Assembly: GCA_964583985.1 (NCBI GenBank)
Contig: CAZOYD010000047.1
Coordinates: 1-27,548, forward strand
Source: an uncultured archaeon
Lineage (GTDB): Archaea > Asgardarchaeota > Lokiarchaeia > Sigyniarchaeales > SOKP01
DNA length: 27,548 nt
Direction of reading: 5' to 3'
Positions 2,439-11,019 of this stretch are shown here, piece after piece (position 1 is the first letter of the stretch; each line of letters starts with the position of its first letter). The notes under the pieces were generated by a model that was given only the letters and a program-made list of their open reading frames with translations, did no database searches and was not told the DNA's origin. The translations under genes were made by a program, and so were the position numbers.

Positions 2439-3860
2439 ATGGATTCTATTGAAAAAGATAAAAGGAGATTTCGCCGGCAATATGGAATTCATATAACTTC
2501 AAAAGATCTATTTAAGGAATTCATTCTTCCTCACATAAAAGACAAATTAAATCAATATTTGTGGGTGGATTTATTTGCGGGGGAAGGTAATCTCATTTTA
2601 CCCATTTTGGAAGAATTTGATCAAGAGGATAGAATATCATTTTTCGAGGAACATGTATATCTTTTTGATATCCATCAAGAAATGGTTCAAAAATGCATTG
2701 ATAACGCTAGTTCTTACGGTATCCCTGACAATATAGCTCAGAATAATATTAAAGTAAGAGATAATCTAAAAAATTTTCCTAATTTTCTTAAAGATAAAAA
2801 ATATCCAATTTACCACATAACAAATCCCCCTTACTTATATCTTGGATACATAATGAAACATGAGGATACGAAGGAATTTTTGAAGTATTTTCAAGAACAA
2901 AATGAAGGATATCAGGATTTATATCAGATAGCGATGATGAATGATTTAAGAAATAATGTTCAAGATATTACCTATATTATTCCCTCAAATTTTCTCTTTG
3001 GGTCATCTGTATCTAATAAGTTTCGCTTAGATTTTTTGAAAGAGTACCAAATTATTAAAATGATAATTTTTGAAACTCAAGTATTTGAATTTACAGGAAC
3101 AAACATATGCTTGGGATTGTTTAGGAAAAAAAAGTTTCCTCTAACCAATGTACAAAATTTTACTGGAATTAAAATCAAAAAAAAAGACATTGTTTTAAAT
3201 CGTAAATTTAGTTTAAATCCTAAATATAAATATCGAGCGGGTTCTCAATTTGATGAATTTATAGAGTCTTTCAAAAGAGAAAACTCTCTTAAGGTCACCT
3301 TTTATTTAACAAAAGATAAAGTCAATCAGAATAACGGTCACTATCGAGTTGAAGTAATTGATGCAAATAATTATAAACATCATGAGTATCAAAGGTTGAA
3401 GCTTGATTTAAATAAAGAATTGATGAATAAAATCAAATCAAATATTTTATACGCGAAAACTGTTGATAGTGGTTCAGATGATGGAAGAGCAGGATTAGGT
3501 ATTATTCATGATGATTTCTATGTAAGTGGTATTTATGTATCAGGAAAAACATATCGAACACATCCCATTCAAATATTTCTATACCCACAAATTTCCATTT
3601 CTTATCAAAAATTACTCAAAGATTATTTTAATTCTTTATTGGAACATTTCAGATACACTTTAGATAGTGAATTTCTAACAACATATAAATATTCAAATGC
3701 TCATTACACGAGAAAATATCTGGGTTTAACTCAAGTAAGAGGTTTAATTCGAACATTTCCTTATGATTTGGATAGTACAAGTATAAATTCTCTTCAAGAA
3801 CTTGTTACCAAAAAAAAAATTGAAGATATCCTTAGATTTTTAAAAAGTGTCAAATCATAA
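2439..3860 (+). CDS. Solitary N6-adenine (amino) DNA methyltransferase, gamma-like motif order
   Basis: Motif I VDLFAGEGNL, motif IV ITNPPY, then DLYQI, YIIPSNFL and VFEFTGTNIC, followed by a C-terminal putative target-recognition region. Confidence 0.8.
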   Translation: MDSIEKDKRRFRRQYGIHITSKDLFKEFILPHIKDKLNQYLWVDLFAGEGNLILPILEEFDQEDRISFFEEHVYLFDIHQEMVQKCIDNASSYGIPDNIAQNNIKVRDNLKNFPNFLKDKKYPIYHITNPPYLYLGYIMKHEDTKEFLKYFQEQNEGYQDLYQIAMMNDLRNNVQDITYIIPSNFLFGSSVSNKFRLDFLKEYQIIKMIIFETQVFEFTGTNICLGLFRKKKFPLTNVQNFTGIKIKKKDIVLNRKFSLNPKYKYRAGSQFDEFIESFKRENSLKVTFYLTKDKVNQNNGHYRVEVIDANNYKHHEYQRLKLDLNKELMNKIKSNILYAKTVDSGSDDGRAGLGIIHDDFYVSGIYVSGKTYRTHPIQIFLYPQISISYQKLLKDYFNSLLEHFRYTLDSEFLTTYKYSNAHYTRKYLGLTQVRGLIRTFPYDLDSTSINSLQELVTKKKIEDILRFLKSVKS

Positions 3861-4727
3861 ACTTGCAAAAACAAAGGATAATAATCCTAGAAGTGCTCCT
3901 ATTTTTAATAATAAGCTTACACGTTTAAACTCGTTCCTTTGCATATTTTTTTTAATCATTAGATAAATTGAAAAAACCACGATTATAAATCCAGAACTCA
4001 TCATTATTAAAAATAGAAATGGATTTATAATATTTGTAAAGAGGGGTAATATGAAGAATATTAGAGCAAGCAGTAAAAAAATCATAGCCAAATTTGTTGC
4101 TTTTTTAGCCCCAATCCGAATAGCAAGTGTTTTCACTCCTTCCTTTTTATCTCCCTCAATATCCTCACATCCCTTAATTATCTCACGTGATAATAGTAGA
4201 AAAAACGCAGTTATAAAGTAGTAATAAATATAAATGGGGATCAATGAGCTATTTAGTAGTGCACCATAAATCATACCGATAGAAAATGAAATGCTAACGA
4301 TTATATTTCCTGGAAATCCACTTTTTTTGCCCCATTTTGCATAAACCCATCCTATGAATCCAAAAAATGCAGCTAAAATAATAATTATGTAATTTAAATT
4401 AAAGATCAAAACGTTAAAAAAACTAAATAGTAGACCAATTAATAAATACGTAAAAAATAACAATTTTGCTTGACTCAGACTAACAGATCCTCTTGGAATA
4501 GGTCGTTGTGGTCGATTTATTTTATCAATTTCATAATCGTAGAAATCATTAATTATCATTCCAGACCCTGCTAGGAATATATAAGTCAATGTTCCTAAAA
4601 TAATATTAGAAAAAAGTAAAGTTAATGAAATAGATGTTCTTGTATTTAGCAAACCGATTATAATAGTTAAAGCTCCCATCAAACAATTAACAGGTCTAAC
4701 TATTTCAATGGCATCCTTTATCTTCAA
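3855..4727 (-). CDS. Digeranylgeranylglyceryl phosphate synthase (UbiA prenyltransferase family)
   Basis: N-terminal RPVN, NDFYDYEIDKINRPQRPIPRG and REIIKGCEDIEGDKKEGVKTLA motifs; polytopic; directly downstream of GGGPS. Confidence 0.9.
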   Translation of the reverse strand: MKIKDAIEIVRPVNCLMGALTIIIGLLNTRTSISLTLLFSNIILGTLTYIFLAGSGMIINDFYDYEIDKINRPQRPIPRGSVSLSQAKLLFFTYLLIGLLFSFFNVLIFNLNYIIIILAAFFGFIGWVYAKWGKKSGFPGNIIVSISFSIGMIYGALLNSSLIPIYIYYYFITAFFLLLSREIIKGCEDIEGDKKEGVKTLAIRIGAKKATNLAMIFLLLALIFFILPLFTNIINPFLFLIMMSSGFIIVVFSIYLMIKKNMQRNEFKRVSLLLKIGALLGLLSFVFASL

Positions 4728-4748
4728 ATCTATTACACCAAGTGGTAA

Positions 4749-5567
4749 TTATTTTAAGCAGAAACTTTTCGGACATTCTTTTCCCGTTTTCTTTATTTCA
4801 TCAATGATAATTTTAAGCGAGTCACCATCATCTTTTAAAATGTTATTTTCCAAAAAAGTACCCATCACGATGATATCTGCGCCAGCTTTTACAAATTCTT
4901 TAGCTATTTCTTTTGAATTAACACCACCTCCAACAATGATGGGAATATTGACAAAATTCGAGCAGAGTTGAATTATATCAATAGGAATTCTTTCAGCTCC
5001 TGATCCAGCTTCTAAATAAATTATTTTATACCCAAGCATTTCTGCTGCTAATGAATATGCTGCTGTTAATTTTGGTTTATTTCTTGGAAGCAATCTCGCT
5101 TTTCCGATCCATCCAGCTGTAGCTCCAGGTTCGATAATCAAATAACCTGTTGAAATCGGTTCTAAATTAGCTCTTTTAACGGTATAAGAGGCAAGTGCTT
5201 GCTGACCAATTATGAAATAAGGATCTTCTGAATTTAATAGCGACATAAAAAGAATGGCATCCGCTTCTTTTGATACATTTGAGAACCCACCTGGAAAAAT
5301 AATTACAGGTACATCAACAACTTCCTTAATCGCAATGATGGTATCGTCTACAAATCTTTGATCGAAGACCGTGCTCCCCCCTATTAATATTGCATCCGTT
5401 CCCGCCTTTTCGGCATATTTTGCCATTTTAGCAGCTTTTTTTGCGCTTTGTTTAATAGGATCAGGATCGATTAAGGAAAAATGCAAGGCACCTTCCTTGT
5501 TTAGCTTATCTAAAATATACTTATATGTATTGAATTCAATAATTTTGTTTGACAAAACATTTACCAT
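4749..5567 (-). CDS. Geranylgeranylglyceryl phosphate synthase (group II GGGPS, PcrB-like TIM barrel)
   Basis: HFSLIDPD, GTDAILIGGST, IIFPG, ADAILFMSLLNS, YLEAGSG, VGGGV and GADIIVMGT. The AGWIG Trp is at the position of the hexamerization anchor of group II enzymes. Confidence 0.93.
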   Translation of the reverse strand: MVNVLSNKIIEFNTYKYILDKLNKEGALHFSLIDPDPIKQSAKKAAKMAKYAEKAGTDAILIGGSTVFDQRFVDDTIIAIKEVVDVPVIIFPGGFSNVSKEADAILFMSLLNSEDPYFIIGQQALASYTVKRANLEPISTGYLIIEPGATAGWIGKARLLPRNKPKLTAAYSLAAEMLGYKIIYLEAGSGAERIPIDIIQLCSNFVNIPIIVGGGVNSKEIAKEFVKAGADIIVMGTFLENNILKDDGDSLKIIIDEIKKTGKECPKSFCLK

Positions 5568-5586
5568 TTACTTCACTTGATTATAA

Positions 5587-6981
5587 TTAATTAACTCTTT
5601 TTGTATTTATTAACATTTTTTTTACCTTATTTTGAACTTCTATTACATTGTTCTTCCATCTTTCAAAATTATTCAAATCTAATGGAAATTTCTTATAAAT
5701 TGAAGATATCTCTCTCATCCTTATTCGAAGATAATTTAAATCTAATAACAAATCCGGTTTTGATATCCCTTTAATAAATTTTGAAGCCATATCAAAAAGA
5801 GATAAATTGAGCCCCCCAGTTGATGAAATTTCTAAAATTTCTTCACCTGATAATAACTCTTTTCCCAATCCAAAATTTAGTTCCTCATTATTAAAAACTT
5901 GAAGTACTTGTCTTAGCAAATCTAAGGAGGCAAAATCCGCTCCAAAATTCCTCATCACTTCTACGTTATATTTCCATAAAGACATAAGTGTATAATCTTG
6001 TCTTTCACACGCCTCAAACGCTACATTAGCAGCGAAATAACCTCCTCTCATTGATGGATCAATGCCTCCACCGTGTAAAGGATTGACTTGACATGCCGCA
6101 TCTCCTATAAACATTATTCCACCATCTGTACACGACCATAATGGCCGCCTAATCGGTACAACACCACCACCAGATGAGAGAATTTCATATTTTGAAGTTT
6201 TAATATAATTTCTGAACACGTTGTTTTGATAAAATTCCTTGACTTTACCTTTATAATCCATAAAAACTCCTAACCCAATATTGATCGAGAACTCATTTTT
6301 TGGAAAATACCAAATATAACCTCCAGGAGCTCTTTTTTTGTCCAAAATAATGGTTATGTATTCTGGATCTTGTACTTTATGTTCAGAGGGGGGAAATTTC
6401 ACTATTTCTCGATAACATAAAATACTATCTTCCTTTGGAATAACTTTTTCTACAATATCACTTTGAATGCTTTTTCTCAAGGGGGAATAAAATCCAGAAG
6501 CATCTATAACAATTTTTGCTCTTAATTCTTTTTTTTCTCCATTTTTTAATCTGACTCTTAGACCCGAAACTATCTTTTTTTGGTAAAGTAACTCTAAAGC
6601 GATGGTATTATCTAAAAATGATGTCACTCCCGCATTTAAAGCATCGTTCAGAAGACGTTGCCCAAATTCTAAACGATTAACAATATAACCCGCTTGGGTT
6701 GGGTCTAATAAATTTATACATTTTTCCATATTTGGGGAATATATTTTTGCTCCTTTAATATGGCAAGATAATTCTTCATTAGTTGGATGTTTGATGTTTA
6801 AAAAATCAAAAATCTCTGTACCTACAGCATCACCACAAATTTTATTCCCAATCTCATTTTTTATTTTCCGATCGATGAGACAAACCTCAAGACCTTTTTG
6901 AGTAGCGACTCGAGCAGCAGTACTCCCTCCAGTTCCGGCTCCGACTACAACTACGTCATATATCTTCTTTATGTCTTCCAT
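5587..6981 (-). CDS. Digeranylgeranylglycerophospholipid reductase (geranylgeranyl reductase, FAD)
   Basis: DVVVVGAGTGG FAD motif, KICGD, R.EF...L, the GGR signature PGGYIWYFP, and GDAA.QVNPLHGGGI; co-oriented immediately upstream of GGGPS. Confidence 0.88.
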   Translation of the reverse strand: MEDIKKIYDVVVVGAGTGGSTAARVATQKGLEVCLIDRKIKNEIGNKICGDAVGTEIFDFLNIKHPTNEELSCHIKGAKIYSPNMEKCINLLDPTQAGYIVNRLEFGQRLLNDALNAGVTSFLDNTIALELLYQKKIVSGLRVRLKNGEKKELRAKIVIDASGFYSPLRKSIQSDIVEKVIPKEDSILCYREIVKFPPSEHKVQDPEYITIILDKKRAPGGYIWYFPKNEFSINIGLGVFMDYKGKVKEFYQNNVFRNYIKTSKYEILSSGGGVVPIRRPLWSCTDGGIMFIGDAACQVNPLHGGGIDPSMRGGYFAANVAFEACERQDYTLMSLWKYNVEVMRNFGADFASLDLLRQVLQVFNNEELNFGLGKELLSGEEILEISSTGGLNLSLFDMASKFIKGISKPDLLLDLNYLRIRMREISSIYKKFPLDLNNFERWKNNVIEVQNKVKKMLINTKRVN

Positions 6982-7036
6982 TATAGCAAAGTATTTATAT
7001 CTTTTTTTGATTAAAAAAGGGTGAAAAATGATTTTA

Positions 7037-7789
7037 TTATATTAAAGTTAGTAAAAATATAATTATTGTCGTTAAAATTGGTACAGTCAAATCATCCCAT
7101 GTGCTCGGTGAGAACAATTCAATTAAAGTTGCTAAAGCACTTGCAATTAAGGAATACAATAGTGCGTCTAAAAAACTAATGTGCATTTGAGTAATGGGAT
7201 TGGTGACACCTAACAAAGTGAAAGCTATCATGCATAAAATATAACCACTAATAAAAAAAGCTAAAGAACCTTCCAGAGTCCTTATTCCTTTGATCCAAGG
7301 AATTTTTATATTATGCTTCCCATATCTTTTTCCAATAACTGATGCTAACGTATCGGAGATTATCATCAATAAAATCGCAGAAAGGGGAAAATACATTTGA
7401 GAAGGTGCAAAAATGACAAATATAAGCAGTAGAAATGTTATGGATATACAATAATGAAAAGGTCCTTGAAGATATCCAACATTTTCTTCAGCTTCTTCTC
7501 CTATGGTCTCGTACAATTCTTTTAATTGCTTTATTTTCGATTTTTTTGAACTCATAAATACTAACACAGTTAGAGAACCTGCAATCACTATTGCCCACCA
7601 AGGCCATTCAAAATAAGGTGTCGTAAAAACACTTAAGCCAGCAAAGAGGTGAACTCCTTTTCGAGCTTGGAACTTCGAGATCTTATCCTTTTTCTTAAGA
7701 TAAACGGGAATGAGAATTGTAGCGAAGACATAGATATAAGTCAATAATACTAATAGTAAATCAGATAATATACTCATAATAATCATCAA
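7037..7789 (-). CDS. CTP-dependent polyprenol/diacylglycerol kinase family membrane protein (phytol kinase/dolichol kinase/Dgk1-like)
   Basis: ARKGVHL, SDTLASVIGKRYG, RTLEGS and EL.SP..WDDLTVP motifs; about 7-8 TM. The start may instead be ATG at 7786 or 7777. Confidence 0.8.
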   Translation of the reverse strand: MMIIMSILSDLLLVLLTYIYVFATILIPVYLKKKDKISKFQARKGVHLFAGLSVFTTPYFEWPWWAIVIAGSLTVLVFMSSKKSKIKQLKELYETIGEEAEENVGYLQGPFHYCISITFLLLIFVIFAPSQMYFPLSAILLMIISDTLASVIGKRYGKHNIKIPWIKGIRTLEGSLAFFISGYILCMIAFTLLGVTNPITQMHISFLDALLYSLIASALATLIELFSPSTWDDLTVPILTTIIIFLLTLI

Positions 7790-8049
7790 TAAGGTTTTTT
7801 TTCATTATTAAACGGTAATTTTACAATTGCTATTAAACAATATCCCACTTAAAATAATATTAAATGTTAGAATAATAAAAATCATAAAAAGATAATTAAA
7901 AGAGTCATAATAGATTTTTTTTTTCCAAATTTATACTCAATTTTAAAACAAAAAAAGATCATATTGATAAACAAAATTGCATTTTTAAATAAAAGCACAA
8001 CGTAACTTTCAATATATAATATCAAAAAGAAAAGAGAGATGATTTTCGT

Positions 8050-8463
8050 ATGGTTGATGAAAAATTATTAAAAGAATTAAAAGAAATGAGAGAAAAGGGG
8101 ACAAGTAAGCCTTCTGATACCTTAAAAATGTATGAGTATGTCAAGCAAATTGCCGAAGAAGATGAAGATTTAAAAGAAGAACTTGAAGACATGGATGAAA
8201 CTAAAGTTCAATTGATTGTCACTGACGTCAAGTATAAATATTATATCATTTTAGGTGAAGGTAAATTTAATTACGCAGAAGGAGAAATTGATGATCCCAG
8301 TGTAACAATGTCAGCTACAGCTGCAACTTGGGCAGGGTTGGCAACTGGAGAACTTGATTCAACAAGCGCTTACATGTCCGGGGATTTAGTAATAGATGGA
8401 AATCTTCAAGATGCCATCGCATATGGCGAAATCTTGAGCATGGCAATGGAAAATATGGAATAA
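8050..8463 (+). CDS. SCP2 sterol/lipid-binding domain protein
   Basis: 137 aa, acidic. GEIDDPSVTMSAT..TW..L.TGELD...AYMSGDL.IDGNL..A is the SCP2 C-terminal signature. Confidence 0.85.
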   Translation: MVDEKLLKELKEMREKGTSKPSDTLKMYEYVKQIAEEDEDLKEELEDMDETKVQLIVTDVKYKYYIILGEGKFNYAEGEIDDPSVTMSATAATWAGLATGELDSTSAYMSGDLVIDGNLQDAIAYGEILSMAMENME

Positions 8464-8490
8464 GAACCACCTTACGTTACATTAACCACA

Positions 8491-8513
8491 TTTATTCATT
8501 TTTTTTTCGTTTT
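8491..8513 (+). terminator. Oligo-T archaeal-type terminator candidate
   Basis: T-rich tract (TTTATTCA followed by a long T run, then CGTTTT) about 30 nt after the SCP2 stop. Confidence 0.4.
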
Positions 8514-8621
8514 ATAGGTTCGCATTATTATGATTAAGTGCTATATTTCACTTCATATAAAAATTTATAATGACAATATAATTTAAAAGACTATCAAGAA
8601 TTAAAGATATAAAATTTTAGC

Positions 8622-9878
8622 ATGCTACGTGTAGGAATCATTGGGACAGGGGATATTGCTAATTTAAATGTACAGGGTTATATGCATTCTCAAGAAGCTG
8701 AACTAGTTGCTGTGAGTGATATTGATATATCGAATGCTGGAGAAAAGTTAGAAAGATGGGGGCTTCGATCTTTAAAAATATATACTGATTTTAAAAAAAT
8801 GATAGACCATGAAGATTTAGATATCATTGAAATCCTTACTCCTCATCACCTTCATTATCCAATGACAGAATATGCAGCTAAAGCAGGAATACCGGGAATT
8901 TCTGTACAAAAACCAATGGCTCACAATATTTCCGATTGTGAAAAAATGATTAAAATCTGTGAAGAAAATAGCGTAAAGTTAAAACTCTTTGAAAATTTTC
9001 GATTTTATCCTCTGTATCTTAAAGCTAAAGAGCTATTAGACAACGGAATTATTGGGGAACCATTGAATTTTCGAATTGTGAACATTTTAACGGGAGGACC
9101 TAGCATGAATAATATTAAAGGTTTTCAATGGAGAACTAATATAGAGATGTGTGGCGGAGGTCCCGAAGTTTTTGATGATGGTCAGCATAAAATGTCAATG
9201 GCTTTATGGCTTATGGATGAAGAAAGGGTTGATCAAGTCTACGGTTGGATAAATTATTTCACGGGTGTCATTGACGCTCCCGCGAATATTATTTGGAAAT
9301 ATCCGCAGAGAGATTCTGAAAAACCTCCCAAATTTGGTACAATGGAATTTACATTTGCAACGAACTTATATTTTCCATCAAATTATTATGGCATCGATGA
9401 ATTTATCGAAATTTCAGGGACAAAAGGAATAATCTGGATAAACCAATGCACATCTGGTGGAAATTTCTTGTCAAAAACACCTCAATATCCACCAATAGTC
9501 GTATTTTCCGATGGAGAAGTCTCAACTTATGGAAATGATTTACCGAGAGATTGGAGATATTCCTTTATTAATTCTACCGAACATTTTATACAAGTGATGA
9601 AAACGGGGAAAGGTGAACCAATTTATAATGGCGACCAGGGAAAAAATCTCTGTATTTTTGGTAAAATGCCTTATATTTCAAATCAAGAGAGTAGAATTGT
9701 TAAATGGGATGAATTTACAGCTGAAAGTGAGGAAAAAGGAGATTGCATTATTGAAGCTCCTTCTTTATCCCTAGGACGTGGTATGTCTAAATACTACATG
9801 AGGAAAAAGAAGGATTTAAATAAAGGAATAGAAGAAGGATTGAAAATAACGAATTTTAAATATGATTATGAGATATGA
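8622..9878 (+). CDS. Gfo/Idh/MocA family NAD(P)-dependent oxidoreductase
   Basis: MLRVGIIGTGDIA Rossmann motif, ILTPHHLH, SVQKPMA (variant of EKP), ENFRFYP and GGG.VFDDGQH. Confidence 0.88.
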   Translation: MLRVGIIGTGDIANLNVQGYMHSQEAELVAVSDIDISNAGEKLERWGLRSLKIYTDFKKMIDHEDLDIIEILTPHHLHYPMTEYAAKAGIPGISVQKPMAHNISDCEKMIKICEENSVKLKLFENFRFYPLYLKAKELLDNGIIGEPLNFRIVNILTGGPSMNNIKGFQWRTNIEMCGGGPEVFDDGQHKMSMALWLMDEERVDQVYGWINYFTGVIDAPANIIWKYPQRDSEKPPKFGTMEFTFATNLYFPSNYYGIDEFIEISGTKGIIWINQCTSGGNFLSKTPQYPPIVVFSDGEVSTYGNDLPRDWRYSFINSTEHFIQVMKTGKGEPIYNGDQGKNLCIFGKMPYISNQESRIVKWDEFTAESEEKGDCIIEAPSLSLGRGMSKYYMRKKKDLNKGIEEGLKITNFKYDYEI

Positions 9879-9912
9879 TTAGATTACACACCCTATTAGA
9901 TTCCATTTTTCA

Positions 9913-11019
9913 CTAAGATAAATCTGATAAGAAAATTTCTTTTCCAAGTTCGCTCGAGTTAATTGCTGCTAAATTAAATTTTAACACATTTCTAGCTTGT
10001 TCCCCAGAAAGAATGGGTGTTTTTCCATTTTTTACTACTTCAATGAAATATTTTGTTGCATTAATAAATGATTTATTCCAATCCTTTTCAAATTCAGTAA
10101 TAGTTTCCACTTTTCCATCTCTTACTATTACAATTGGAGCAAAGACTTCAGAACTTGACATTTTATTTCCCATAGATGTTCCTTGATTGATTTTCATTAA
10201 TCCACGACTCGCGATTATTTCAATAAACTCATCTGTGGGATAATATTTTGAGCGAATTTTCATTTCGGGTAATAGAGCAAATTCCATATTACCATATTTT
10301 GGGACTAAGTGTTCTTCTTTTTCTTTACATTTCCACATTACATAAGCTGGGACATCGATTCCTGAATATCTATCTGTCCAAGCAAAAACTTTCTCAATTT
10401 CTTCGTTGAAAATCCAGTATCCTAATGCAAAAGCGTGCCATCCGTTATCAAACAGTATGGGGGATCCATTTTTTGAACCTCCAATCTGACTTGGGTCACT
10501 TCTCCAAGTATTAGCACTTTTCGGTATTTCCCACCCTCCTTTTGTTCCGATTGCAACCTTGATTCTGATAGATGATATGTCCCCTATGTAATCTTCATCT
10601 AATAATGCTTTTGCTTTCATTATATGTGGTGCAAAGAAAAAATTTTCATATACAGATAATATTGAACCCGATTTTGAACAATCTTCTATCATTTTATCCG
10701 CTTCTTCTAATGTTAGAGCCATAGGCTTTTGTACTGAGATAGCTTTTATACCCTTCTTTGCGGCGTATGAAGTTACCTCTGCATGAAGGTGGTGAGGTAG
10801 CAAGATTTCAACAACATCTAGATTCTCCTTATCTAACATTTCCTTATAGTCAGAATAAATCGGAATATTTTCATCTAATTTGAACTTTTGAATTTTTTGT
10901 CTAGCTTTTTCTTTTGTTCTATTGCATAAAGCAACAACTTTAGCATCCGCATTGTTCAGATACCCAAGAATGTGTAAATCAAAGATTACTCCAGTTCCTA
11001 TGATCCCAACATTTAGCAT
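9913..11019 (-). CDS. Gfo/Idh/MocA family NAD(P)-dependent oxidoreductase (paralog of 8622..9878)
   Basis: MLNVGIIGTG, ILLPHHLH, SVQKPMA, ENFFFAP and LFDNGWH. Confidence 0.88.
   Translation of the reverse strand: MLNVGIIGTGVIFDLHILGYLNNADAKVVALCNRTKEKARQKIQKFKLDENIPIYSDYKEMLDKENLDVVEILLPHHLHAEVTSYAAKKGIKAISVQKPMALTLEEADKMIEDCSKSGSILSVYENFFFAPHIMKAKALLDEDYIGDISSIRIKVAIGTKGGWEIPKSANTWRSDPSQIGGSKNGSPILFDNGWHAFALGYWIFNEEIEKVFAWTDRYSGIDVPAYVMWKCKEKEEHLVPKYGNMEFALLPEMKIRSKYYPTDEFIEIIASRGLMKINQGTSMGNKMSSSEVFAPIVIVRDGKVETITEFEKDWNKSFINATKYFIEVVKNGKTPILSGEQARNVLKFNLAAINSSELGKEIFLSDLS

Follow-up and report, generated by a model that had tools for sequence, protein, structure and literature searches.

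A gene for a membrane protein of the CdsA-fold family of CTP-dependent isoprenoid-alcohol kinases heads a putative four-gene ether-lipid operon in the window, the whole 27,548-nt stretch of Lokiarchaeial DNA that was analysed. Its placement in this family is supported by sequence motifs, a predicted structure (pLDDT 96) and profile searches. Our best reading, held tentatively, is that the window enzyme is a prenol-type kinase that starts salvage toward the donor used by the lipid operon. The membrane enzyme would phosphorylate a free C15-C20 prenol, of the geranylgeraniol or phytol type, to its monophosphate, and this would be the first step of a salvage route ending in a prenyl diphosphate, the donor for the GGGPS and DGGGPS encoded downstream. 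In a lineage in which DUF92 was not found, the second phosphate would have to be added by some other means. We infer kinase activity, use of CTP, the substrate and co-transcription.

The sediments inhabited by Lokiarchaeia are rich in free isoprenoid alcohols such as phytol and geranylgeraniol and in fossil archaeal core lipids. To our knowledge, no gene has been tied to the re-use of prenols or core lipids by archaea, for which the geranylgeraniol kinase activities reported from Sulfolobus in 1996 are the sole basis. The four-gene operon hints at the re-use of free isoprenoid alcohols, the putative substrates, and offers a concrete, clonable candidate beside the enzymes to which its product would pass.

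The ether-lipid gene cluster and its conservation

The initial annotation had described four co-oriented genes separated by 55, 19 and 21 nt, and the open reading frame table bears this out, with the kinase, GGR, GGGPS and DGGGPS genes all on the minus strand (Table 1). The ORF finder begins the kinase frame with a TTG (7037-7789), while comparison with the called gene and all homologues places the true start at the ATG at 7777.

Table 1. Features of the ether-lipid locus (positions in the window).
Feature	Position	Strand	Description
Membrane kinase-like gene	7037..7777	minus	246 aa, eight-helix; COG0170-type (VTE5/FOLK/PolK/Sec59/Dgk1 family), Lokiarchaeales variant with S-D-T and D-D motifs
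Kinase-GGR spacer	6982..7036	minus	55 nt, AT-rich, T-runs, TATA-like ATATAAATA
GGR, digeranylgeranylglycerophospholipid-reductase type	5587..6981	minus	464 aa; PF22578, TIGR02032, NF041080
GGGPS, PcrB family	4749..5567	minus	272 aa; PF01884, TIGR01769; single copy in genome
DGGGPS-type UbiA-family prenyltransferase	3855..4727	minus	290 aa; PF01040
Gene with weak N6-methyltransferase-like domain, convergent	2439..3860	plus	473 aa
Promoter-like block (AACAYTTAATAYTAT ... AGTGGGATTTT)	7815..7870	minus	Upstream-region alignment, 9 genomes of g1 and g2

GGR matches PF22578 and scores 214 bits with TIGR02032 (cut-off 159), and its best equivalog is DGGGPL_reductase (NF041080) at 404 bits; elsewhere in the genome, six weaker tblastn matches with 24-29% identity lie on five other contigs. 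GGGPS scores 192 bits with PF01884 and 246 bits with TIGR01769 (cut-off 162). DGGGPS scores 132 bits with PF01040, and its top NCBIfam models are DGGGPS-type prenyltransferases, with scores below the equivalog cut-offs. The convergent 473-aa gene shares 6 nt with the 3' end of DGGGPS and marks where the operon ends. It adjoins DGGGPS in all 10 genomes of the sister genera g1 and g2 and probably lies outside the lipid pathway.

The window had also been described as lacking CarS, GGPP synthase and G1PDH. This was correct, and counterparts or candidate matches sit on contigs other than that of the window (C47): CarS on contig C1 (113-115 bits), polyprenyl synthases on contigs C63 and C3, and, from the G1PDH search, Fe-ADH_2 matches of 23-41 bits on five other contigs. 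NF002626, tried as a G1PDH model, turned out to represent another family.

The kinase-GGR-GGGPS-DGGGPS order with short gaps is present in 10/10 genomes examined from g1 and g2 (the window's genome and nine other species-level genomes), and the four-gene order with short gaps is also found on two metagenome contigs. In the 10 genomes, the kinase-GGR spacer ranges from 7 to 65 nt and the next two from 18 to 29 and from 11 to 26 nt. Given this recurrence in nine other species-level genomes, the arrangement is not due to chance.

One conserved block, lying some 40-95 nt ahead of the kinase ATG, is found across the g1/g2 genomes aligned and is kept although the upstream neighbour gene varies between genomes. 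This promoter-like block is a candidate BRE/TATA box and operon start region; a search of positions 3500-8700, the block included, gave no Rfam match. The T-runs and the TATA-like stretch of the 55-nt kinase-GGR spacer are not conserved in the other genomes, and in one genome (G108) the spacer has only 7 nt, too short to accommodate an internal promoter there. The promoter-like block, kinase, GGR, GGGPS and DGGGPS would form a single transcription unit.

The linkage of the kinase to the lipid genes is conserved in the two sister genera and does not extend further in the sampled Asgard genomes: genera g3 and g4 of the same family showed no such linkage, nor did family f2 or the 10 other families checked. 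This narrow range weakens the proposal of the initial annotation, which had set non-conserved linkage as a refutation. Genus g3 (genomes 98-100% complete) keeps GGR-GGGPS-DGGGPS and has no kinase orthologue, and no remnant of the kinase gene was found upstream of GGR. Since g3 has the lipid operon without the orthologue, the kinase gene is dispensable. Outside g1 and g2, the neighbours of the orthologue are housekeeping genes and, once, a GT4 glycosyltransferase gene. The link between the kinase and the lipid genes is shallow and arose once.

Two other neighbours were considered. In f2, a radical SAM gene next to the orthologue was considered as a tetraether synthase and rejected; its product is B12/radical-SAM-like, its neighbours are SerRS and TsaC genes, and a second lipid link is therefore lacking. 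An SCP2 gene was rejected as a conserved partner, since it adjoins the operon in the window's species alone and in two others lies at a distance of ~2.4 kb.

Family assignment of the predicted membrane kinase

Characterised CdsA-fold kinases phosphorylate phytol, farnesol/geranylgeraniol, dolichol and diacylglycerol with CTP. The kinase protein has no Pfam or NCBIfam match of its own, PF01148, CTP_transf_1, included; 10 of 72 related representatives match PF01148. A family profile matches TmCdsA (4q2e, E = 3e-4), and a single-sequence search of the PDB found nothing. The AF2 model (pLDDT 96, pTM 0.91) has eight helices in a CdsA-like polytopic helical fold, and its top Foldseek match in the PDB is also TmCdsA (probability 1.00), a weak match at E 2e-3. 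Structure comparison gives Z 8.9 over 177 residues with CdsA 4q2e and Z 7.3 over residues 124-246 with CarS 5guf, and a TM of 0.82-0.83 to Atlas clusters that bear the name diacylglycerol/polyprenol kinase family, one of them mainly cyanobacterial.

Residues R39, H43, D142, G170, E220 and D228 are invariant across the 72 representatives. The N-terminal R-K-x-x-H clamp is present as R39-K40-G-V-H43, the central D-x-x-A-x-x-x-G-x-x-x-G-K motif as D142-TLASVIGKRYGK and the (K/R)-(S/T)-x-E-G-S motif as R166-TLEGS, and the C-terminal motif reads E..SP...DD..P. This charged clamp has been described for PfPolK, a CTP-dependent farnesol/geranylgeraniol kinase (PMC10849223). The cytidylyltransferase signature (K-R, PGHGG, DRxD or DQxD) is absent from the sequence. 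Motifs, fold and the absence of this signature agree in placing the head gene in the CTP-dependent lipid-alcohol kinase branch and not among the cytidylyltransferases, as had been proposed.

A divergent cytidylyltransferase, that is, a second CarS or CdsA completing the pathway after DGGGPS, is a very improbable reading. CdsA and CarS have the fold core of this superfamily, and probably the nucleotide, in common with the kinase; CDP-archaeol synthesis is the step after DGGGPS, and one database source labels a close homologue phosphatidate cytidylyltransferase. However, the genome has a separate, bona fide CarS (113-115 bits, on contig C1) with the K-R...D-Q-L-D motif, whereas the window protein has no CarS-like (PF01864) or CTP_transf_1 match and, instead of the C-terminal signature, carries the kinase-type R-K-x-x-H, R-T-x-E-G-S and D-D..P motifs.

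By motif and structure, rather than by tree, the window protein compares well with VTE5, FOLK, PfPolK and the Synechocystis phytol kinase. It has the ~240-aa core and the eight-helix model, together with R-K-x-x-H, D..A...G...GK, (K/R)(S/T)xEG and the C-terminal acidic motif (for the clamp, PMC10849223). Its TM of 0.82 to an Atlas cluster with mostly cyanobacterial members is a further likeness, and, as with VTE5, its relatives pair with the VTE6 family. Unlike these enzymes, it has S-D-T for G-D-G and D-D for D-N, no VTE6/DUF92 partner was found in the window's genome or order, and its gene sits in an ether-lipid operon, outside tocopherol and chlorophyll metabolism.

In a tree built from anonymous representatives, with VTE5, FOLK, Sec59/DOLK, Dgk1, slr1652 and HVO_0053 left out, the kinase falls in a clade that spans the Asgard archaea and has a Bathyarchaeota/Thermoprotei clade as its sister. 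The kinship to Sec59 and Dgk1 raised in the initial annotation holds at the superfamily level; nothing closer emerged, and the nearest clusters are archaeal and bacterial.

The changes from G-D-G to S/A-D-T/P and from D-N to D-D are present in the window protein and in all orthologues read from families f1 and f2. Among the sequences read from other Asgard families, from the TACK sister clade and from DUF92-fused and bacterial representatives, G-D-G and D-N persist; G-D-G gives way to G-D-A in three representatives, two fused and one unfused, and to A-D-G in one unfused representative. The S/A-D-T and D-D motifs thus read as a derived variant and not as exclusion from the kinase family. The shift is common to g4 and f2 orthologues outside any lipid operon, and the altered motifs suggest that the chemistry or the substrate of the enzyme shifted when the DUF92 partner was lost.

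The DUF92 partner and proposed prenol salvage

VTE5 and VTE6 provide a known two-kinase precedent (PMC9782597, PMC9385802). Among the relatives of the window kinase, 13-14 of 23 long proteins are fusions of the kinase with DUF92 (PF01940, the VTE6 family). Family f5 likewise has fused frames, 523-552 aa in length. The Bathyarchaeota/Thermoprotei sister clade shows two distinct arrangements in which DUF92 directly adjoins the kinase, and one of these continues with AcnX mevalonate-pathway genes. PF01940 was found in 70 of the 120 Asgard genomes searched, including 17/17 whose canonical-motif orthologue was read. Fusion, adjacency and co-occurrence with DUF92 support a two-step salvage of prenols to prenyl diphosphates by these relatives.

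The same route would account for the geranylgeraniol and geranylgeranyl phosphate kinase activities of Sulfolobus (1996; see PMC9385802 and PMC9782597). Together they amount to a two-step phosphorylation of prenols in an archaeon, which this kinase family together with DUF92 would explain. These are described as activities, and the papers searched tie no gene to them.

For the window, the salvage proposal stands in part. The downstream operon enzymes consume GGPP, and the relatives of the kinase are tied to DUF92 by fusion, adjacency or co-occurrence, but DUF92 was not found in any of the 17 genomes of the window's order (the window's, 100% complete, and 16 other f1/f2 genomes). The donor that GGGPS and DGGGPS require is a diphosphate, and a monophosphate product has no known route to GGGPS. 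The shallow lipid linkage and the dispensability in g3 are also counted against prenol salvage. In addition, archaeal DUF92 has been linked to the cis-prenyltransferase UppS (PMC5898192), and a UppS gene lies 3 kb from one Thermoprotei relative; this link is just as compatible with a metabolism of long-chain polyprenols or dolichol. In bacteria, uppS-cdsA operons hold carrier-lipid and membrane-lipid genes that share an operon without sharing a pathway, and this precedent is a further point against the prenol-salvage reading.

Possible dolichol or archaeol substrates and a proposed change of substrate

The window enzyme may possibly, though with less likelihood than a prenol-type kinase, be a housekeeping polyprenol/dolichol kinase that supplies N-glycosylation with dolichyl phosphate. 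Its position ahead of the lipid genes would then reflect co-regulation of membrane biogenesis or a neutral rearrangement, and not a common pathway. The protein shares its superfamily and catalytic motifs with Sec59/DOLK and with archaeal arCOG01881 (e.g. HVO_0053), and 'dolichol kinase' is the conventional annotation of the archaeal homologues (PMC5898192). JGI also labels some close homologues in this way. Eukaryotic dolichol kinases have roughly double the length and carry an extensive N-terminal membrane domain, whereas the window protein is a short form; paralogues of 344-378 aa in its genome are nearer to that architecture, and one of them gives a weak eukaryotic DOLK match with a score of 0.82, which is a lead only.

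Of the Asgard clades in the family, the one that includes the window protein is the most widespread, and its sister clade is from TACK archaea, as expected for a vertically inherited housekeeping gene. The housekeeping neighbours outside the two genera, the GT4 gene and the UppS gene of the Thermoprotei relative point the same way. The 378-aa paralogue, the other one tested, is restricted to the window's family, which rules it out as the universal enzyme. The window's genome encodes no fewer than six additional proteins of the kinase family, counting a fourth, weak-motif PlsY-fusion gene, so a dolichol kinase role cannot be assigned elsewhere by exclusion.

On the other hand, dolichyl phosphate is a monophosphate, which leaves the fusion and adjacency with DUF92 unexplained, the near-complete genomes of g3 have no orthologue, and the operon conserved in g1 and g2 joins the gene to enzymes that use a C20 donor. 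We know of no archaeal member of the kinase family that has been assayed, which also counts against this assignment and for which reason a dolichol kinase would still be a useful result. In the literature searched, the sole assayed prokaryotic member is a cyanobacterial phytol kinase (PMC9782597).

The Dgk1-like archaeol kinase put forward in the initial annotation received no direct support and is improbable. As an archaeal counterpart of yeast Dgk1, a CTP-dependent diacylglycerol kinase of the same superfamily, it would convert the head-group-free diether, archaeol or di-O-geranylgeranylglycerol, to archaetidic acid in one step, ready for CarS, which is present elsewhere in the genome. Dgk1, whose one-step re-phosphorylation is the model for this reading, demonstrates that the family can act on diradylglycerol. 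No second kinase would be needed, which fits the absence of DUF92 in the window's order, and the operon partners DGGGPS and GGR produce and process this lipid in its phosphorylated form. The S/A-D-T, R-T-x-E-G-S and D-D motifs of the Lokiarchaeales subclade are consistent with a change of substrate after loss of the partner, but g4 and f2 orthologues, which lie outside lipid operons, show the shift too. Moreover, the cluster has no phosphatase or lipase gene to generate archaeol, specific kinship between Dgk1 and the window kinase is unsupported, and we know of no archaeal diether-lipid kinase.

A broader account, which we consider unlikely, is that a Lokiarchaeales VTE5-type kinase lost its VTE6-type partner, changed its motifs and was then wired into the ether-lipid operon in two genera as a neofunctionalised lipid kinase. 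It would act either as a one-step archaeol (diether-glycerol) kinase or by making a prenyl monophosphate that enters by an undescribed route, for example through PlsY-kinase fusions. If either is true, isoprenoid-lipid recycling in sediment archaea that are close relatives of eukaryotes would have its first gene. The canonical orthologues with DUF92 and the motif-shifted ones without it form a ready-made experimental contrast. The PlsY-kinase fusion proteins occur only in the two operon-bearing genera.

Family assignment of the gene heading the ether-lipid row

Four genes lie in succession on the minus strand at 3855–7789 in the ORF table: the kinase, a geranylgeranyl reductase (GGR), GGGPS and DGGGPS, with spacers of 55, 19 and 21 nt. 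The ORF finder starts the kinase at a TTG at 7789, while the called gene and all homologues use the ATG at 7777, giving a protein of 246 aa. The initial annotation was correct that CarS, GGPP synthase and G1P dehydrogenase are absent from the window; the genome's CarS, polyprenyl synthase and Fe-ADH_2 matches are all on other contigs.

Features of the row, its surroundings and related loci
Feature	Position	Strand	Remarks
Promoter-like block	window, 7815–7870		AACAYTTAATAYTAT...AGTGGGATTTT; roughly 40–95 nt upstream of kinase start
GGR	window, 5587–6981	-	Pfam and NCBIfam, good support
GGGPS	window, 4749–5567	-	Pfam and NCBIfam, good support
DGGGPS-type UbiA prenyltransferase	window, 3855–4727	-	Pfam and NCBIfam, good support
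473-aa gene	window, 2439–3860	+	convergent to DGGGPS, 6-nt overlap; weak N6-DNA-methylase/UPF0020 match only
SCP2-domain gene	window, 8050–8463	+	divergent from the four genes
GFO/IDH/MocA oxidoreductase pair	window, 8622–9878; 9913–11019	+; -	inositol-2-dehydrogenase-like
Tandem paralogues, ~368 and ~344 aa	contig C68, 11769–12902; 13001–14041	+
378-aa paralogue	contig C6, 13513–14661	-
Four tandem genes, 397–417 aa	contig C6, 56183–57406; 59121–60374; 60495–61688; 61791–62999	-	N-terminal PlsY (PF02660)
TACK sister-clade locus L061 (GCA_054027675.1)	5001–10723		kinase, DUF92, 684-aa FMN/FAD oxidoreductase, SCP2 (weak, 8834–9289), AcnX large and small subunits

Taken alone, the kinase protein has no match in Pfam or NCBIfam, the top sub-threshold model being DUF92 (E = 0.019). 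There are 550 close homologues at E ≤ 1e-3 in a 90%-identity collection, and a 50%-identity library yields 1047 representatives; the nearest are all Promethearchaeota/Lokiarchaeota. They are named diacylglycerol/polyprenol kinase family protein, phytol kinase, dolichol kinase or phosphatidate cytidylyltransferase. Across an alignment of 72 representatives, R39, H43, D142, G170, E220 and D228 are invariant; 10 of the 72 match PF01148, and a profile of the 72 hits TmCdsA (4q2e), a CDP-DAG synthase, at E = 3e-4. The AlphaFold model shows eight long helices at high confidence (pLDDT 96, pTM 0.91). Its best solved structural neighbour is TmCdsA (Z 8.9, 177 residues), its C-terminal half resembles CarS (5guf, Z 7.3), and in the ESM Atlas it matches diacylglycerol/polyprenol kinase family clusters at TM 0.82–0.83, one of them mostly cyanobacterial.

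The window protein carries the kinase-branch motifs R-K-x-x-H, D..A...G...GK, R-T-x-E-G-S and E..SP...DD..P. Of these, R-K-x-x-H has been described as the "charged clamp" in PfPolK, a CTP-dependent farnesol/geranylgeraniol kinase likewise modelled with eight helices (PMC10849223). These motifs and the predicted fold, together with the absence of a cytidylyltransferase signature from the sequence, assign the protein to the CTP-dependent lipid-alcohol kinase family; by analogy with characterised relatives, it would be an active kinase using CTP. A cytidylyltransferase would share the fold superfamily, but is very improbable given the missing signature, which is present in the separate CarS of the same genome (contig C1). 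Motifs, fold and the profile's reach to TmCdsA thus bear out the proposed kinase family, and the suggested kinship to Sec59/Dgk1 holds at the superfamily level and no closer. The gene family is already known and its proteins have been named by NCBI. In the literature searched, no description was found of this kinase-headed ether-lipid operon or of the motif-shifted Lokiarchaeales subclade without DUF92 described below.

Extent of the linkage and the upstream region

For the survey, 120 Asgard genomes were searched for the kinase and GGGPS and the positions compared; loci were then fetched and their genes mapped. All 10 readable genomes of g1, to which the window belongs, and of its sister genus g2 have the four-gene row, with kinase identity as low as 54%, and the convergent 473-aa gene, which has no NCBIfam match, keeps its place beside DGGGPS in each of them. 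In two more g1 genomes the cluster is interrupted by a contig end. Spacers in g1/g2 range over 7–65, 18–29 and 11–26 nt. The 7-nt kinase-GGR spacer of one genome is too short to house an internal promoter, and the T-runs and TATA-like stretch in the 55-nt spacer of the window are not conserved. From gene order and sequence, a membrane lipid-alcohol kinase putatively co-transcribed with core ether-lipid genes is well supported in these two genera.

The promoter-like block is conserved in g1 and partially in g2, and resembles a BRE/TATA element with a start region, which we infer it to be. At least five different genes lie upstream of it among genomes. Since the upstream neighbour varies, the unit from block to DGGGPS has been kept intact while its surroundings changed. 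Adjacency of the SCP2 gene is not conserved: it is ~2.4 kb off in two other g1 genomes, was not found within the fetched range in the remaining g1/g2 genomes, and its position is taken by five different genes. The 418-aa protein of the GFO/IDH/MocA pair has counterparts in at least five more g1/g2 genomes, encoded 1.3–3 kb upstream of the kinase.

The initial annotation had made conservation of the linkage across Asgard genomes its criterion. This is borne out in the 10 g1 and g2 genomes and in no other Asgard lineage sampled. A third genus of the same family f1, g3 (three genomes, 89–100% complete), has GGR-GGGPS-DGGGPS, and neither a kinase orthologue nor a remnant was found there; a fourth, g4, has the kinase on a different contig, and in 10 other families no kinase-GGGPS linkage was found. 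Kinase neighbours in those families are housekeeping genes (HD phosphohydrolase, MoCF, Rpb5, SerRS, TsaC, thymidylate kinase), with a GT4 glycosyltransferase in one case. Among the loci read, the complete GGR-GGGPS-DGGGPS cluster occurs in f1 only. Because the link vanishes outside g1 and g2, the linkage is only narrowly conserved by that criterion and represents one evolutionary event. Narrow as its distribution is, the operon opens a putative archaeal prenol and lipid salvage to direct testing.

Upstream of GGR, g3 has a non-coding region of 270–330 nt (L025 about 5160–5490, L026, L027) with conserved AT-rich blocks, TAATATTCGA..AAATGTGATTAATATTAAATAATATC, partly like the g1/g2 promoter-like block; this would fit an older four-gene unit that has lost its kinase, although no remnant was detected. 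A search with GGGPS from the window (E ≤ 1e-10) gave matches in 0/2 genomes of f2 (a second family of the order), 0/3 of f14, 0/5 of f17, 0/4 of f22 and 1/9 of f5; every remaining Asgard lineage surveyed has one copy. Some of the negative families may have a divergent enzyme or none. In four Asgard families, f12, f7, f13 and f26 (L009 8767–9333, L016 6423–7082, L019, L020), orthologues with the canonical motifs repeatedly have an HD-domain phosphohydrolase of 185–245 aa next to them or close by, the f12 protein being TIGR00295-like.

Phylogeny, the DUF92 partner and the substrate

A quick IQ-TREE search under LG+G4 on 145 kinase domains, with SH-aLRT as the only support measure, puts the window kinase in a clade of 44 (support 96), together with 13 of the 14 included Asgard orthologues, which come from 11 additional families. 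Sister to it (support 84) is a group of six, of which the named ones are Bathyarchaeota and Thermoprotei. This topology identifies the gene, as judged from sequence, as the Asgard/TACK representative of the kinase family, inherited vertically. Paralogues from the window's genome lie elsewhere on long branches.

The plant phytyl-phosphate kinase VTE6 belongs to the DUF92 family, PF01940/COG1836 (PMC9782597, PMC3223725). Among the best 150 relatives, 13–14 of 23 long ones are kinase-DUF92 fusions, and such a fusion has been noted in Methanosarcina by Makarova et al. (PMC5898192). DUF92 is directly beside the kinase in the TACK sister clade, either divergent across a 116-nt spacer or co-directional and followed by FMN oxidoreductase, a weak SCP2 match and AcnX genes (archaeal mevalonate pathway); by its gene content, the L061 row is a candidate isoprenoid salvage or supply cluster. 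In Asgard, DUF92 occurs in 70 of the 120 genomes and is fused to a kinase domain in f5. These fusions, adjacencies and occurrences support an ancestral route from alcohol to diphosphate in two steps, as with VTE5 and VTE6. If true, it would account for the geranylgeraniol and geranylgeranyl-phosphate kinase activities in Sulfolobus, as cited in PMC9385802 and PMC9782597. Because archaeal DUF92 has also been tied to the cis-prenyltransferase UppS (PMC5898192), the substrate of this route may be either short- or long-chain; in one Thermoprotei relative, UppS is 3 kb away.

Searches detected no DUF92 in the genome of the window, which is 100% complete, or in the 14 other f1 and two f2 genomes covered. 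Orthologues of this f1/f2 subclade have A-R-K for T-R-K, S/A-D-T/P for G-D-G, R-T-x-E-G-S for (K/R)-S-x-E-G-S and D-D for D-N. Among genomes whose orthologue was read, the variant motifs occur in 12/12 without DUF92 and the canonical ones in 17/17 with it, a match that represents one phylogenetic split and not 29 independent observations. The coherent, derived state of these sequences suggests a change of function.

We tentatively read the window protein as a C15–C20 prenol kinase, pointing to the DUF92 ties of its relatives, the characterised family members and the GGPP-consuming enzymes downstream; the main objection is that the second kinase was not found in this order. A dolichol/polyprenol kinase is the conventional annotation and accords with the broad vertical distribution, but it leaves the DUF92 pairing unexplained and is somewhat unlikely. 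The absent partner and the motif shift would agree with an archaeol kinase, which has no known precedent and is improbable.

Paralogues in the window's genome

Besides the prenol kinase candidate, at least six other members of the family are encoded in the genome. Three longer ones, the C68 pair and the 378-aa protein, have extra N-terminal membrane regions and carry R-K-x-x-H, the central Asp motif, (S/T)xEG and DN..P. The 378-aa paralogue is limited to f1 (13 of 14 genomes), and a language-model search gave a weak lead to eukaryotic dolichol kinase (0.82). In three of the four tandem PlsY genes the C-terminal part is clearly a kinase-like domain of the window gene's family (profile 51–59 bits; D..G...G..FG[KR], KT.EG, DN.TVP), and because of this domain the Lokiarchaeia "PlsY homologues" are predicted PlsY-kinase fusions. 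Fused frames (about 400–425 aa) are seen in g1 and g2 only, the genera with the kinase-headed operon; PlsY in other Asgard families is a stand-alone protein of 220–258 aa.
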